A stretch of DNA of 63,869 bases, counting the filler, from Rhabdomonas costata (Eukaryota): assembly GCA_019059605.1 (NCBI GenBank). It is 16 parts of 16 records of this genome, joined end to end, with 100 filler letters (N's around TTAATTAATTAA, not from the genome) between each part and the next. Parts side by side here need not be neighbours in the genome. Positions count along the whole stretch, not along the records: positions 43,892 to 47,767 come from JAHMHO010000467.1; 15 more parts are not named here. One strand, written 5' to 3'. Within the stretch, counting starts at the first letter, position 1, and each line of letters opens with the position of its first letter. Below the pieces are notes generated by a model that was not told where the DNA came from, did not search any database, and saw only the letters and a list, made by a program, of their open reading frames with translations. The translations under genes were made by a program, and so were the position numbers. Below are positions 43,892 to 63,869 of this stretch, in pieces.

Positions 43892-44206
43892 GACCTGCCT
43901 CCAGGTCGACACCAGTCCCTGCACCACCTGCCCGCGACGAGCTCGGTCTGCCGTGGACGGATTATCCGGTGGGGAAACCGGGGTTTTGGCTTCGCGGAGT
44001 TTTCCGGGCTCTCCGCACAGGTCTTCGTTCACATCAGCAACTTTGATGATCCCGAGCCAGACAGCTCTCTGCTGTACGGCCAGCCTGCCATTGAGGCCGC
44101 GATGGTCCCAGGATGGGTAAGGCAAACGTCAAAGGGAGTCGAAATCCGCAGAGGGTGCAAGTGCCTTTCCGTCACTACAGCTCTCCGGACATTCAGTCGT
44201 CGGTAA
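43892..44206 (+). CDS. 3' end (cold-shock domain) of the same RING-NYN-CSD gene, at the start of the contig
   Basis: Reads DLPPGRH...GRIIRWGNRGFGFAEFSGLSAQVFVHISNFDD...RR*, with RNP1 (GFGF) and RNP2 (VFVHIS) both present. Confidence 0.8.
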   Translation, partial: DLPPGRHQSLHHLPATSSVCRGRIIRWGNRGFGFAEFSGLSAQVFVHISNFDDPEPDSSLLYGQPAIEAAMVPGWVRQTSKGVEIRRGCKCLSVTTALRTFSRR

Positions 44207-45875
44207 GTATCGTGGGGTTGTTTCCGATGCGTTTCGATGTGTTCTCCTTCCTAATCCCTCTGGTGTGAACACGCACGTTCTCGGTCGTCCGCATGACGTG
44301 TCGACCAGAAGGGCAGAAGGCTATCCTCTTTTGCGTTGCTGCGATTCTCTGGTCAGCATTATTCTTTTCACTCCAGTGTCCATTGTGTGATTCCAACACC
44401 TCCCGCCGTTGGCCTTCGTTTGTGTTGTTTTCTGTAAAGTGCGTTTGAGTGACGCCTCTCCGATGATTTCGGCGAACGTAGCCGTGCCTCCAACATTCAG
44501 AAATGGCCTTCTTTGTGTCTGTTTCTTTGTCTACTGGCACCATTGGAATTACAATCATACACACGCTCCCGCCTTTGGCTTTTGTGTACCACGCGTACCT
44601 CCATTGTGCGCCGCACCTCCCGCGGACCCATTCTCATTTGTACGCCCACCACCACCACCACCACCACTTCAGTTTCTCCCATTCCGAGGGTTTCGTGGCG
44701 TTGTTTCTAACACCCTACCTCCAACTCTTCTGTGCATCCTTCCTGTGCACCTCCATCCCCTCCATTCGTCCAGGTTCTTTCACTCTCCACTCTTTCATCG
44801 CCCACCCCTCCCCCCTTCTTTCGGCATTAGTGGTGCTGTGCTTTGTGCCTGGACGCTGGACACTGGACGTCACCTTCTTGGATCGAGATGCATCAATGCC
44901 TGGAAATAATATTGCGATGTGGTGAAGAAAAAAAGGAAGGAAAATGGAATTTTCGCTGAAATGGGAAAAATGGCCGACCGTTGTGTAGACTTTTTGCGCT
45001 TAAAGAAGTAAATTGGTCCACATAGCATCTTGCCCTCAGCCAATGCATGTGTAAGCAAACATTAAGGGCGTAGCGCAGTGGCGAGGACAAATGCGCAGAC
45101 GCCAATGCCGAGGCAATGGCTGCATCGTTTTCAGTCACAAACTCTGCTCTGGTAACAGCCTCGACATCAAGTGCAGGATGAGAATTGTGTGGCTTTTCTG
45201 CACCATTGCTGTGTCATCTCAAGTGTGCATGGGCACAGGTAGCCCAGAGTTAGGGTGTGAGTCCGGATTCACGAACATATCTCAGTGGCAGCACGATGGC
45301 CCGTACCAGGCATTCGGCGGTTTTTTCTTCCGCCCTGCTTTCACGGTGTTGCTTTTTTCTTGACGAGGACGTGGTGTGGTGAGGAACAGCCGGGGTACTC
45401 TTAGGTTCGGGGGATATCTCCCTCTGAATTCTTCGGCCAGAGCGTCCTCACAGCGCATCCCCCGCAATGCCGTTGCTCGACGTGATGCTTGGTGTGGCCC
45501 CTGTCCTTGGTCTTTTGCGATTGGAATGTGGGTGCAAAAACTCGCGGAGGGACCGGGACGCAACGCTTAATGTTTTGCACTCCAGGTTCCAGTGGAGGCT
45601 GTTATGGTGGGGGTCGAGCCTGATCTGCTTGGGGATGCTTCTTGCATCCTTTTTCTTGCGATGTGGGTACATTTGGGAGTCAACCTGTTTCTTCCAAGCA
45701 CCCAGATGGCCCTTTGCACCTCCAACAGAGGTGGGTCGGAAGTTCAGCCGGAACCGCGCGGTTACCACGCTCATTCGTCCTCGCCACCTCTGCACCCAAC
45801 ATCTCAACGCTTTCGTCGCGGTTCGACATGTTTATCTGCAGTCTTTTTCACTGGGTTTTTCTTCCATTGGAGAAG

Positions 45876-47767
45876 ATGTCGACTTGTGGGGTGTGTTTTG
45901 AAGAGTATGACAGGGAGCAGCACATCCCGCAACTGCTCAACCCCTGTGGGCACTGCCTCTGCCTCCGGTGCAAGCAGCAGCTCCCGCTCCCCGTAGTGAT
46001 CTCGCCATCTCGAGTGCGCAGGTGGCGTGCGCATCTTGTTCGGGGGAGGGGGTGCATCATGTAGAAAATTGGAGAGTGGGGAGTATTTGCGATGCATGCA
46101 TGCCGATGGGGTACACTTTGCACAACAGAGAGGATCCCTATTGCTCTCTATTTCACTTTTTGTGCGCTTGCTGATGTGTTGGTTAGCCAGGGTATCGCAG
46201 GAGTTGGAGAGTCCAGAATATGGGCGATTTCTGTGGGAAGTAGTGTGCGTATGGTGCACATATGTCACCTCTCTTCTGGAAAACCTTCATAGACCTCCGT
46301 GCCCCTGGTGCCGAACGGAGATCGAGAGCTTTGTGGAGAACCGTGCCCTTCTGACGATGATCGAGGAGGTTCAGGAGAGGCCCATCGAATCGGAGGAAAC
46401 AGAGAATCCCCCGCCCAGGTTTCCCCTTTCCGAGCCGCTGGCACGACGGCAAATTCAGATGTTTCTCGAGGCTCAGTGCTGCCGCTTTCCAGCCACCCCC
46501 TCTGCGGACTTCCCCATGTACACCGTTGAAGTTCAGAAGAAATTTGTGGACCTCGTGGACCAGCTGTGGACGGAGCACTGCTGCTTCGACATTCCGGAGC
46601 TTGGCGCAGAGGAGCACCCGGGAGAATCCGCGCTGAGGGCGCTGCGCGAAGATAGCTTTGGGGACGAAGTGATGCGCAGGGTAGTCCGGCAAGATCCCGC
46701 GCTGCGCTACCTGGAGACGCTCTTCGGGATGCTAGACTACAGCCAGAGGGACCAGATCGAGGCCTTCCTTGAACTTCTGCGAGGCGCACGGGCTACCCTA
46801 ACCTTGCAAGAGTACCGTGTGCACATCCTTTGGGACACAGAGAACGTGCGCCTTGCCGACACACCGGATTTCTTGGGGGCCCTGGAGCAGCTGTTTTGCT
46901 TTCTGGAGAGCCGCCACATCGGAGTCCGCCGGCGGTTCCGGGTGAGTGCGTTTTTCATCGCGGGAAAGCATCAGGCCCCCAGCAAGAGAATGCTGAAGAC
47001 AATGAGAGATCTAGGCTTCGAGCTGCACGACTGCCCCGAAGGGAAGAAGGAGGAGGTCGACCGCCAAATCGAGCGCCGTCTGAACACCATTGCGGATGAC
47101 TACGACCCAATGAAGACCCGTGTCGTGGTGATCTCCTCGGACAAGGACTTCATTGAGCCCATGCGGATGCTGCGAGGCAAGGGCTTTCTGGCGTATGTTC
47201 TGCACAACGCTAGTGCTGGTTCTCCCCACGAGAGGGCCCTCGGGGTTAACCCCTCGGGGGCGTTTTCCATCCGCGAAGCACTCGGGCCGTCGCTCGTTCA
47301 TCTGCTCTCGGTGTGCCCCCGGTGCCCTGGGCATGTTGCCAATGAGCGATGTAACCTTTGCGTGTCCTGCCAGAACTGCAAGCGCCTAGTTCCGCCCACA
47401 GCGATCGTTGCACTCTCGCAGACCTGTGAGACCTGCTGCAGCACCTTGAAGGAGTGCCAGCACTGCCGGAGCCGTTTCTTCCCTTCCCTTCTTGTGGGGT
47501 CTCTGTGCCGGGGATGCAAGTGTCAGAACCCCTCATGCGATCAGGTGGCCGTTAGCGGCGGCTTTTGCAGGGCACACGTCCCGGCGGTTCCCGCTGTAAC
47601 ACGCCACCCGGCACCCGCTGAAGCACGGCCCCAAGAGGTTGACCTGCCTCCAGGTCGGCACCAGTCCCTGCACCACCTGCCCGCGACGAGCTCGGTCTGC
47701 CGTGGACGGATTATCCGGTGGGGAAACCGGGGTTTTGGCTTCGCGGAGTTTTCCGGGCTCTCCGCAC
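45876..47767 (+). CDS. RING finger - NYN (PIN-like) ribonuclease - Cys-rich zinc region - cold-shock domain fusion protein
   Basis: Exon 45876-46021, GT-AG intron 46022-46292, exon 46293 to contig end. RING: CGVC...CGHCLCLRC...CPWC. NYN: LWDTENV, KKEEVD, VVISSDKDF. Multiple CxxC pairs follow. The CSD begins GRIIRWGNRGFGF. Confidence 0.85.
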
Positions 47768-59270: not shown

Positions 59271-61399
59271 CTGAAAAGTCACAGGCAGGGTGGAGGGGTG
59301 TGGGGTGTCATTTTCGGCATGTTCGGGAGGTGCTGGTTGAAATACCGGGATGATATGAGGACATCGGGAACGGCGCGGATGGCCCACGACTTCCACAACC
59401 CTCCGAAATGAATAGGACATTGTGAGAAAAAAAGAGGAGCAGGCAACCAAAGGCAAAGGGCATTTAAAGACGCCAACGGTAGTCCGAGACACTGGGGGCG
59501 CATCCCAAAAGGTTTAGTCATCGGCCTAATTCACGAGCAATTGAGCATCACTGCAAACAAGCCAGCCACCGCGGGCCGTGCGACACGAATACGCAAATGA
59601 GGAGGATGCAAGGACAGGGAACAAAAGAGGGGAAGATTCCTTTTCAAGGGCACCTTCAGAAGCGTTTACTGAAAACTGGCGATAATGGGCAGATGACATC
59701 CTGAGAGTTCCCGGATGGCTTGGCACACCGTTTGTGTCCGGGGATTCCCGGGCGCTGCCTCCTCCGGCGGAATTTCGCGAAGGTGCTGAATGAAAGCAAA
59801 CAAAAGGGTTTCGTTATTATTTCATTTTTTTGCTTGCCCGATAGGCGCCAGTTGGTTTCAAGACAAAGTGTGCCGGAATCACTTGCAGGACAACCACAAA
59901 NNNNNNNNNNNNNNNNNNNNNNNNNNNNNNNNNNNNNNNNNNNNTTAATTAATTAANNNNNNNNNNNNNNNNNNNNNNNNNNNNNNNNNNNNNNNNNNNN
60001 CGTGAGCAATAGTTAGTGGTACGCATGTCTGTAATCAACACACAACTACAGCTTACTGTTTACTATTGGAACTGACCGCGACCATCCTTCATGAAGCTCC
60101 ATGGCTCTGCAAAGCCAAGCTCCTGGATGTTATTTAATTGATTTCACAATTACTCAATTTTTCCGTGAATATTCTGTGCAGCCTCTTTGCTGGTACATAA
60201 CTGATATGCCTCAAATCAATGCATTAGTCCGTATTCCTTGAATTGAGTAACACTTCAGGAACTGAAGCTGTAATTCTTAATTACTTGATTACTTGATTAC
60301 TAATCTTGCTGTAAATACTTCCACGTTTAAAATTGTTGCTGTAAGCTTCTTGTGCAACTGTTATCTCTACAAACTGAATCTCTGGACCAAAGTCTAACTT
60401 GTAATAGACCACGATGCTCCAGATTCCATTAATGACATAAATTGGATGTTCCAAATCAACAAAGGCAATAGCACTAGTGGTTGAGTTGGATGTTTTGCTC
60501 CCAAGAACGCAACACTATCTCTCTCGCGCTTTTATGTAATGGAAACACAAACAGCATGGCATGAGGTTACTTCCCAAATTAGAATTCTTCCCACTGCTGT
60601 ATTTGCCAATAGCTAAAGACTAATATGAAAACTCATCTACTAACACGCTTCACAAGAAAAGCTGTGTGCAATACGTTGACTCGGTGTATTTTCATGCTCA
60701 AGTTGTATTTTTCAAATACTAGGCGAGTGCGACAATCTGAATATCAATCAGATTTCTCTTTTGTAACCCAACACTACCAATTTTCAACTCTTTTTCATCG
60801 AGTGGGTGGTTTCTTACGATCGCTAATTAAGCGTCTGTTCTATTATCTCTGCACAAAACTTCCCGCAATTCCTTCTGATAAATACGATTCATGTACAAAA
60901 TCACTTCTGCCATCTTCTTCCACTGACTCCAGAAGAATGACTGAGCCACGAGTTCGCTTTCGGTTGAGAATCAAACTTCTGCCCCTTATTATCCTCTTTG
61001 ATTACGCTTCCAGATCGAAACTTGGGTTTTCCTCTGGGCATTAAAAATTACTAGAAATTCCGCAATATACAAAGAACCTGGATGTAACCAGAGGCTTCGA
61101 GCTTGAAATTGAAAAAATGATTTTTAAATGCTCTTCAATCCCCGTAAAATTGGCTTGGGGTTTGAGTCGTCTAGTATTCTCTCTTTTTGAGCTAGTGATT
61201 TCTGGGCATTACACTTTAAGTTTTAATTCCAATTTAATTTTGTGACGGTAGTAGTTACCTTTGTCCTCTTGTATGTCAATATTATTCTGACTTGAATCTG
61301 CCTTATTATGGTGTTATAAAAAATCATCGATATAGAACCGTTTCTGGTAGCTCATAAGACCCAACATATTGTGTATAACATCACTGTTGAATCTGTTGA

Positions 61400-61700
61400 T
61401 TGACACTATGCACTCAGCTGTATAGACATCATGAATTCCGTAATCACCAAAAACGTGGTGTACATATATTGTTGTCAAAGTTTGATTTCATGACATCAAA
61501 CTCGTATCCACCTCTGGTTACCACGTGGTGGTACTTAGCTCCAGCTATGAATCTGGAAGATCTCCACATGGGATTTTGTTACTCTACGCTCAGCATTTGC
61601 TGATATGTTTATTGGTTCTTATAGCGTCCTATACGCTGAACTAGAGTACGGAGACATTCTGTTACAAGCACGTAGTAATCAAATGTTTGGATAATCTACA
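61400..61700 (+). pseudogene. Possible heavily decayed CMGC-type protein kinase remnant
   Basis: YPPLVTTWWYLAPA resembles yTxxVvTxWYRAPE, followed in other frames by AFADMF and NQMF. Stops and frameshifts throughout. Confidence 0.25.
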
Positions 61701-63869
61701 GTAAATCTCTAACAGCACTATGTAAATGGATTGCTAGTTTATATCATATTTACTTGTTTCAGCGGAACTTCTCGATTGATATGGTTTTTTTGCATTATAC
61801 GAAAGCAAGCACTTTAAACTTGATTCAACTCAATCGTTTTGTTTCTGCGGACTCTGCACACAATTCTCTCAAATTGGGCCTTATACAACACTCTGCTACC
61901 ACGCTTAAAGTGNNNNNNNNNNNNNNNNNNNNNNNNNNNNNNNNNNNNNNNNNNNNNNNNNNNNNNNNNNNNNNNNNNNNNNNNNNNNNNNNNNNNNNNN
62001 NNNNNNNNNNNNNNNNNNNNNNNNNNNNNNNNNNNNNNNNNNNNNNNNNNNNNNNNNNNNNNNNNNNNNNNNNNNNNNNNNNNNNNNNNNNNNNNNNNNN
62101 NNNNNNNNNNNNNNNNNNNNNNNNNNNNNNNNNNNNNNNNNNNNNNNNNNNNNNNNNNNNNNNNNNNNNNNNNNNNNNNNNNNNNNNNNNNNNNNNNNNN
62201 NNNNNNNNNNNNNNNNNNNNNNNNNNNNNNNNNNNNNNNNNNNNNNNNNNNNNNNNNNNNNNNNNNNNNNNNNTACTTTTAATTAGCGCCTATATATTTG
62301 GTGGTAGTGCCTCTGGACCCCAATCTATTTGTACTGCAGCACAAGGTGGGTGCTGACGGATCTTACCTAGGTGTCCTGGAATATATAATGTGAAGGTTCT
62401 TTACATTCGTCTGGTGGTATCTATCCTGATATTTTCTGCTTTATTTGCATTTCTGAAACTGAGGTGTGTGTTTCAATCACTTTCAATTTACTAAGCAGCT
62501 TTGCCGCAAATCTGTCGACATCTACAGTCAATGTGGTAGGATGCACAAGTTATATCTCTTGTTCTTGCCTTGGTGATCACACATTTTTTAGTTTAGAGTG
62601 GTTCAGTTGAGTCTACCCATTTATGTCTTTTCACAATATACAACACAAAAAAGGCAGTGGAGGTGGCAAGCTACCTCACACACGCATACCCTGTCATTTT
62701 CTTACCGCACTTGCACGCATATGCTCGCCTTCTACCACCATCTTCCCATCCGCTTGTGCTCCGCGGTGGGAATTGGCAATGTGGGTTCTGGGTCTAAAGT
62801 TGCGTTTCCGTGGATGGGTTCTGTGCGTAGCGGGTACTGAGTTTTAGTGGTAGTGTCTTACGTGGTGACTTTGTGGCTGATGGTGACGTTAGAATTTATG
62901 CTGTGGTATCTGTGTTTCTGGGTCATTTTTCTTGGCTGGTTGGGTTCTGTTCTCTGTCTGTAGATGATGTATTCCTGGGTTATGTGCTGGTTCTATTTTT
63001 CGGGTTGTCTTGTGTTGTCGTCGTTGTCTCCATGATAGTCATTGGTGTTTGTTGCGTGAATGTGTGCAGAATTTGCCCTCACTTCTGAGTTCTTATATTC
63101 TTTTCTTTCCGACAAGTGAGCGTCTCGAGTGTGTTGGATGTTGGATAGAATTGGATGTTGTTATGGCAGTAACAAATGGGTTATGTGTGATAGGCGAGTA
63201 TGTGGAGATTTTTTGATTGGTTGTGTGGTATTCGTGTGTCGGTGTTACGCGTTCTTGTCTGTGGTGCCTTTGTTGCGTGAAAATGACGGGTTTTGTGGCT
63301 CTGTCTTTGCGGTGTGTTCTGCGATGGGTTGGTGGTCTATCGAGGTTGTATTGTTCTCTATTGTCGTTGTTTTTTGTTGAATATTCTAGCTGCAAGCTGG
63401 TTATGGCTTCATCTTATGGGATATTATTATATTTTATTATTATATTGTTATATATGGGATTGGGTTGTGCGTCGCTTGGGCTCTGTGTATGGTTGCAAGC
63501 GCGGTGTGTGTGGGTGGGTGATGCTTCAAAGTTGGGTGGGTTGACGGGCAACTTTAGATTCAGTACGTAGATGGGTTTGTGGATGATTGTAAATTTTTGA
63601 AACCAACAGGTATGTATTATTTACTTATGGGCTGGTGTGCATGTTGGTCTGCTATCGTTATATCTACGCCTTCTGCTGTCGATGTTTCTGTGTGTCTATG
63701 AGGTATTCTGTGTCACTGGTGGGTGGATTTGTAGACGTGGTCTTGGTTGCATTGGTTGACGTGGTGCTGGGAGTGCTGATTGGGGTGATTTGTTGGGTAT
63801 TTGTTGTGGTGAGCTTGATGCAAAATAGGTTCCATTACGCGTGTGTTCTTTATTGCATTCTTGCGCAGT

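Follow-up and report, generated by a model that had tools for sequence, protein, structure and literature searches.

The window analysed here, a 63,869-nucleotide (nt) stretch of the Rhabdomonas costata draft genome (GenBank assembly GCA_019059605.1), includes one contig (JAHMHO010000467.1, window positions 43892-47767, 3876 nt, G+C 56%) whose gene encodes a RING finger, an NYN ribonuclease domain, a cysteine cluster and a cold-shock-like domain in a single protein. Splicing 45876-46021 to 46293-47767 and continuing at 44019-44206 gives a coding sequence of 1809 nt, and its translation agrees at every residue with P0004 (602 residues), the transcriptome-derived R. costata protein RCo052757 of EukProt. 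The gene and the parts of its product downstream of the RING finger are laid out as follows.

45876 to 46021, plus strand: exon 1, with the ATG and the first 48 2/3 codons, carrying RING ligands 1-6 (C4, C7, C24, H26, C29, C32); P0004 residues 1-48
46022 to 46292, plus strand: spliceosomal intron, 271 nt, GT..AG, interrupting the RING between ligands 6 and 7
46293 to 47767, plus strand: exon 2 to the contig end, residues 49-541 (first base of codon 541), with the end of the RING, helical region, NYN domain, cysteine cluster and start of the cold-shock-like domain
44019 to 44206, plus strand: exon 2 continued at the contig start, residues 541-602; stop codon at 44204-44206
46432 to 46785, plus strand: helical region, residues 96-213, about 120 residues with six predicted helices, AlphaFold predicted local distance difference test (pLDDT) 55-77
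46816 to 47307, plus strand: NYN (PIN-like) ribonuclease domain, residues 224-387, with D230, E232 and N233, D305, D332 and D334
47314 to 47577, plus strand: cysteine cluster, residues 390-477, 16 Cys and 3 His
43946 to 44167, plus strand: cold-shock-like oligonucleotide-binding (OB) domain, residues 517-590, contig-start copy; its first 73 nt are repeated at 47695-47767

Gene structure and expression

Soukal et al. 2021 (PMC8219788) give RCo numbers to proteins that were predicted from transcriptome data of R. costata; their genome draft was assembled with SPAdes v3.7.0 to an N50 of 1194 bp, and they made no gene prediction on it. Because RCo052757 derives from a transcript and is identical to the spliced model, mRNA supports both the removal of the intron and the continuation of the gene from one contig end to the other. 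The gene is real, expressed and spliced as modelled. The original prediction, made from the DNA alone, had placed one GT-AG intron between these exons and completed the gene at 44019-44206; its intron and exon boundaries prove exact, the identity with RCo052757 confirms the completion, and what it called the other contig end is the opposite end of the same contig.

A further ATG, in frame and 48 nt ahead of the start codon, occurs at 45828; a run of pyrimidines and CTGCAG come after it. The transcript-derived protein begins at the downstream ATG rather than at 45828. The following element would be a plausible trans-splicing site.

45836 to 45841, plus strand: candidate spliced-leader acceptor CTGCAG, proposed from sequence, after a pyrimidine-rich run and 35 nt before the ATG

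A start at the downstream ATG would fit spliced-leader addition at the candidate site at 45841.

When the exon-2 translation was used in a word-based search, P0004 was the single protein found (100% identity, 100% coverage). Word-based homologue searches returned only P0004 and a paralogue, P0005 (RCo052753, 266 residues, accession EP00906_Rhabdomonas_costata), which is 54% identical over residues 1-267. An NCBIfam scan of P0004 assigned it to no family, and a protein atlas search gave no usable match.

RING finger and helical region

The RING finger spans residues 4-55 and retains all eight ligands in C3HC4 spacing (C4-x2-C7-x16-C24-x-H26-x2-C29-x2-C32-x19-C52-x2-C55), so that the predicted RING is indeed complete. 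With exon 1 alone, Pfam reports eight partial RING matches, of which zf-RING_UBOX lies above its cut-off (25.9 versus 25.2 bits) and the seven others below. A PDB search with P0004 alone finds the TRIM32 RING at E 5.6e-4, and a profile restricted to the close family (A4: P0004, P0005, P0006, P0009 and P0154) finds it at E 1.3e-8. An AlphaFold model built on 137 aligned sequences has a mean pLDDT of 66.9 and a predicted template modelling score (pTM) of 0.42, and its best-modelled part is the RING (residues 1-77, pLDDT 92-98). This part matches the TRIM23 RING with a VIA Z of 9.1 (root-mean-square deviation (RMSD) 1.9 Å, 69 residues aligned), and also resembles the RINGs of TRIM32 (Z 8.9) and Roquin (Z 7.9, RMSD 1.5 Å). 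TRIM-type RINGs (TRIM32, TRIM23, TRIM21) are thus nearest in both sequence and structure, at 30-36% identity. The B-box and coiled coil that follow the RING in the TRIM family were, however, not found in P0004, where Pfam gives no B-box match, and the second loop of the P0004 RING, at 19 residues, is unlike that of TRIM RINGs. A hydrophobic residue between ligands 1 and 2, a CPxC motif and an Arg after the last Cys fit a RING that binds an E2 enzyme.

Between the RING and the NYN domain lies the helical region, on which the original prediction was silent, as it was on the meaning of the contig's self-closure. In many NYN relatives a BART domain occupies this position. An hhalign comparison with the BART+NYN group reaches 99.8% over 261 columns and runs through the helical region, its score being carried by the NYN domain. 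A BART-like reading of residues 85-221 finds no support when these are taken alone, hhalign of the N-terminal parts giving a probability of 2.6% (E 0.018), and Pfam finds no ARL2_Bind_BART (PF11527) before the NYN domain of P0004 at E<=5. The region is possibly BART-like.

A MARF1-type NYN domain with its acidic residues

The nuclease domain is recognised by Pfam PF01936 in the full protein (32.9 bits against a cut-off of 24.2, residues 224-352) and is modelled at pLDDT 81-97. Its best fold match is the NYN domain of MARF1 (5yaa), with a VIA Z of 16.9 and an RMSD of 2.8 Å over 149 of 150 residues; Foldseek finds the MARF1 NYN at E 5.3e-7 with a TM-score of 0.75 on the target. Profiles agree, since the A4 profile reaches the human MARF1 NYN at E 1.3e-4 and a broad 137-row profile at E 1.1e-18.

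The WDxEN, K-x-E-x-x-D-R and SSDxDF columns conserved in relatives correspond in P0004 to three acidic motifs, WDTEN (229-233), EEVDR (302-306) and SSDKDF (330-335). Through the profile, these motifs also pair with the WDIEN, Asp pair and S-T-D of MARF1. The 137-row alignment holds the same residue in 71-81 of the 109-114 filled rows at each of K300, E302, D305, R306, S330, S331, D332, D334 and F335. An NYN domain with the acidic residues DTEN, EVD and SSDKDF is therefore present, as had been predicted. In one study, the MARF1 NYN is described as cleaving single-stranded RNA with Mn or Mg, and an Asp426/427 double mutant as inactive (PMC6294520).

The surrounding modules are those of neither MARF1 nor Regnase. 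At E<=5, Pfam finds no RRM or LOTUS/OST-HTH domain in P0004, and a ZC3H12-type RNase domain and a CCCH finger are absent from its list, which holds only PF01936, Zf_WRKY19 and CSD. The P0004 NYN is of MARF1/limkain type and is an orthologue of neither MARF1 nor Regnase. Of the likeness originally drawn to MARF1, Regnase-1 and N4BP1, the MARF1 part holds, whereas the Regnase/N4BP1 type is set aside, there being no match to the ZC3H12 RNase domain.

The NYN domain might instead serve as an RNA-binding scaffold only, in which case P0004 would in effect be an E3 ligase that binds RNA, as Roquin and MEX-3 are. The quality of the RING model and its match to the Roquin RING speak for such a protein; however, every acidic position of active NYN domains is retained and conserved in relatives, which makes this explanation very unlikely.

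Cysteine cluster and cold-shock-like domain

Six CxxC pairs fall within residues 390-457, matching the earlier estimate of about six, and further Cys residues extend to 474. The end of the cluster resembles a WRKY19-type mini finger (Zf_WRKY19), which scores below its cut-off (21.7 versus 27 bits). Only the first CxxC...CxxCxC element, directly after the NYN domain, is common to P0006, P0007 and P0009.

The C-terminal domain contains GFGFA (529-533) and VFVHI (542-546), which lie on strands 2 and 3 and resemble the aromatic RNP1 and RNP2 motifs of cold-shock domains (CSDs). Among 1.84 billion proteins, P0004 matches P0030, which has four Pfam CSDs (5.9e-49), at E 2.1e-7, and library-wide it also matches other multi-CSD proteins (P0061, P0063, P0101, P0107). 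The A4 profile reaches CspA at E 1.6e-3. Five strands are predicted in the AlphaFold model, the first three at a pLDDT of about 80-88 and the last two low; a long loop separates strand 3 from strand 4. From motifs, profiles and model together, residues 517-590 can be read as a divergent CSD-type OB fold.

Relatives and spread of the architecture

A HMMER search against 1.84 billion representatives with P0004 finds 152 proteins at E<=1e-3 and six sequences at E<=1e-10 including the query, that is, five relatives. When 156 stored matches were sorted by the query region they cover in a local phmmer comparison, 84 matched the NYN domain only, 52 the RING only and few covered several regions. The metagenomic protein P0006 (531 residues, 38% identical) has RING, NYN and CSD by Pfam in the same order as P0004, and its gene is one intronless open reading frame (ORF) on a 2770-nt contig whose ends do not overlap. 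P0009, from Apiculatamorpha spiralis, has the NYN domain, the Cys motif and a CSD-like end, and lacks the RING.

These two relatives bear on whether the architecture is an artefact, either a chimeric transcript or a misassembled contig that fuses unrelated genes. The assembly is very fragmented (N50 1194 bp) and the contig starts and ends within the gene, as such an error might leave it. However, the genome contig and an independent transcriptome give the same 602 residues, P0006 repeats the domain order in an uninterrupted ORF and P0009 shares the part from NYN to CSD. Since P0006 keeps the order RING, NYN, CSD, the fusion is conserved and no chimera; an artefact is largely refuted and hardly conceivable.

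RING and NYN domains also occur together in Bodo saltans CUG88663.1 (P0039), Rhynchopus humris P0086, and in P0017, P0075, P0127 and P0138. Like P0004, P0039 and P0086 have an N-terminal RING followed by an NYN domain, and P0039 shows CSD-like repeats in the alignment; unlike P0004, to which they are 23-26% identical, their RING is of another subtype (zf-C3HC4_3). Both lie in another part of an unresolved NYN tree, so RING+NYN fusions may be independent. This is a quick tree of 90 rows, with RING and CSD labels assigned by regular expressions rather than by Pfam; 37 of its 87 inner branches are open, P0004 is unplaced, and the RING rows need five changes, a number as low in 54 of 500 shuffles. 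Whether the RING+NYN fusion arose once or several times cannot be told from it.

In a second set of proteins, the core order of nuclease, (zinc module) and CSD is as in P0004: BART+NYN+CSD in P0049 and P0064, and NYN with several CSDs in P0012 and P0032. The BART+NYN+CSD form is frequent among protists. These proteins lack the RING and are uncharacterised, and their BART domain is undetected in P0004. BART+NYN proteins make up 48 of the 90 rows of the tree. They belong to a large protist group (P0014-P0033, P0049, P0064 and others) with BART and NYN domains and, in some, a C-terminal CSD; one member is from Mallomonas annulata.

A literature search for a RING+NYN+CSD fusion found no description, and one for BART, NYN and ARL2 together found nothing. 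The main text of a PIN-superfamily classification (PMC5499597) makes no mention of cold shock or CSD and names RING in another context only. The RING+NYN+CSD design is rare and unstudied, is built from well-known parts, and recurs in variant form across Euglenozoa, with RING+NYN proteins in all three main lineages (euglenids, kinetoplastids and diplonemids), none of them studied. The four-part architecture had been put forward as unrecognised. No description of it was found in the literature searched; it is not unique, given RING+NYN+CSD in P0006 and RING+NYN in B. saltans and R. humris. Its close relatives are few, and all of these proteins are uncharacterised.

Some of these relatives have further features of their own. 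P0138 (1455 residues, on a 1.2-Mb contig) joins a protein kinase, RING, NYN, CBP66 second domain and Torus/CCCH, and the diplonemid P0086 combines RING, NYN and the CBP66 second domain as P0138 does. The P0006 contig is compact, apparently intron-poor and eukaryotic; about 350 nt upstream of the P0006 gene, at L001 3-692, is an open-ended ORF with a thioredoxin-like 2Fe-2S ferredoxin match below cut-off (22 versus 24.8 bits).

The contig closes on itself

The window consists of 17 separate stretches, mostly 3.86-4.11 kb and ordered roughly by length, which are linked by N runs around a TTAATTAATTAA spacer; stretches that stand side by side are not genomic neighbours. The ends of the gene-bearing stretch overlap by 127 nt, with 126 of 127 positions identical, and no end overlap of this kind was found in the other 16 stretches.

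43892 to 44018, plus strand: terminal overlap, contig-start copy, 127 nt, with A at 43909
47641 to 47767, plus strand: terminal overlap, contig-end copy, 127 nt, with G at 47658
44207 to 45875, strand not assigned: stop-to-start interval of 1669 nt, comprising 3' untranslated region, spacer and 5' untranslated region

The largest SPAdes k-mer is 127, and because the overlap has exactly this length, the contig is a closed path in the assembly graph. The 3749-nt unit is a head-to-tail tandem repeat or a circle. The sole mismatch (A 43909, G 47658) falls in an Arg codon, which reads CGA in one copy and CGG in the other; this third-base change is synonymous and fits at least two slightly different copies of the unit. 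Each unit holds one gene (1809 nt of coding sequence and a 271-nt intron) and 1669 nt without another detectable gene. Pfam gives no match above cut-off for nine further ORFs on the contig, Rfam gives nothing on it at E<=0.1, and a search of the contig for tandem repeats found none. For annotation, the overlap indicates that this R. costata gene is either amplified in tandem or circular. Tandem gene arrays are common in Euglenozoa. Euglenid ribosomal DNA is carried on circles, as stated in the abstract of PMC9082867.

Amplification or circularity is among the features that could point to a defence or genome-surveillance effector, which would recognise viral or retroelement RNA, cut it and ubiquitinate associated proteins. 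The family is also sparse and fast-diverging (five relatives at E<=1e-10, and a paralogue just 54% identical), and MARF1 is reported to limit retrotransposon RNA in oocytes (PMC6294520). Yet the contig offers no neighbouring genes for context, the relative P0006 is a single intronless gene beside an unrelated gene, and arrays of this sort are commonplace in the group. A defence role is speculative, and we consider it unlikely.

Proposed function

P0004 is probably a cytoplasmic RNA-decay factor that brings target recognition, cleavage and protein marking together in one chain. The C-terminal cold-shock-like OB domain would bind single-stranded RNA, probably aided by the cysteine cluster. The NYN domain, which is of MARF1 type and retains the acidic residues that bind metal, would cut the bound RNA endonucleolytically, and the N-terminal TRIM-like RING would recruit a charged E2 and ubiquitinate a protein on the same messenger ribonucleoprotein (mRNP), or P0004 itself. 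From the domains, folds and conserved residues observed in this spliced and expressed gene, we infer RNA binding, cleavage, ligase activity and their coupling. The domain order makes functional sense: as in MARF1 and the NYN+CSD families, an RNA-binding module accompanies what looks like a competent endonuclease, and a ligase is added N-terminally. The original proposal that the binding and cleavage of RNA are coupled to ubiquitination gains support from domain, profile and fold evidence and appears likely.

Several observations weigh against a decay factor of this kind. In the full protein, Pfam lists no RING model at E<=5, and a PDB search with the NYN sequence alone gives 16 weak matches at E<=10, among which MARF1 is absent. 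The cysteine cluster, at pLDDT below 50, has no reliable model, and residues 81-94 and 464-515 are unmodelled by AlphaFold. The cold-shock-like domain scores below the Pfam CSD cut-off (PF00313, 16.8 bits in the full protein and 20.2 as a fragment, against 27), and the match covers only the first half of the profile (positions 5-35 of 66). Modelled alone, residues 500-602 give a weak structure (pLDDT 58). With this CSD-only model, Foldseek finds nothing at E<=0.001 (best E 0.04), nearly all of its top rows being cold-shock proteins, and VIA finds the UNR CSDs at Z 6.2 and 5.8, a range that the tool itself calls common. Of the cold-shock domain as first claimed, the GFGF and VFVH motifs stand, and the multi-CSD match at E 2.1e-7 supports the domain, whereas the Pfam score falls short of its cut-off.

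Among the closest known systems is MARF1/limkain b1 (PDB 5yaa, 6fdl), which shares the PF01936 subfamily and the acidic motifs and, like P0004, tethers its nuclease to RNA-binding modules. MARF1 differs in using RRM and LOTUS domains, without RING or CSD, and its NYN domain is about 14-18% identical to that of P0004. The pairs Roquin with Regnase-1 and Hel2/ZNF598 with Cue2/N4BP2 likewise connect ubiquitin ligation and RNA binding with the endonucleolytic decay of mRNA. Ubiquitin ligases and endonucleases work together in the mRNA surveillance of animals and yeast, but ligase and nuclease are separate proteins there, whereas P0004 is one chain, and its nuclease is an NYN domain rather than a ZC3H12-PIN (Regnase-1) or SMR (Cue2/N4BP2) domain.

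P0004 could instead be a fused analogue of Hel2/ZNF598 and Cue2/N4BP2 that acts on stable RNA or on stalled translation complexes, in processing or in quality control; its RING would mark a protein of the ribosome or one that binds RNA, and its NYN domain would cut the RNA attached there. Cold-shock domains generally bind single-stranded RNA, which would suit this role. Gene neighbourhood has also tied bacterial NYN proteins to tRNA and rRNA processing (PMC5499597). However, P0004 shows no ZNF598/Hel2 similarity beyond a generic RING, with TRIM32 and TRIM23 as its best matches, and Pfam finds no SMR or CUE domain in the full protein; we regard such a role as quite improbable.

For the decay factor that we favour, a bolder version can be drawn, to which we give little credence at present. 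In a single-chain "mark and cut" enzyme, the CSD would dock where RNA lies exposed on an mRNP that is aberrant, stalled or foreign; the RING would ubiquitinate a bound protein and the NYN domain would cleave the RNA. The repeated RING+NYN fusions would then represent a decay route typical of Euglenozoa, and selection for dosage or diversification would lie behind the amplified unit. If this were true, one polypeptide would do the work of the Hel2 and Cue2 or the Roquin and Regnase-1 pairs. Euglenozoa rely heavily on post-transcriptional control, as established for kinetoplastids, and a fusion of ligase, nuclease and RNA-binding domain would be a compact system for studying a possible mechanical link between the marking of proteins and the cutting of RNA.

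Other stretches of the window

The final two stretches of the window (60001-61912 and 62274-63869) differ in composition, with G+C of 0.38 and 0.44 as against 0.48-0.57 in the other 15, and are also shorter. They may be organellar, contaminant or from another genome compartment.

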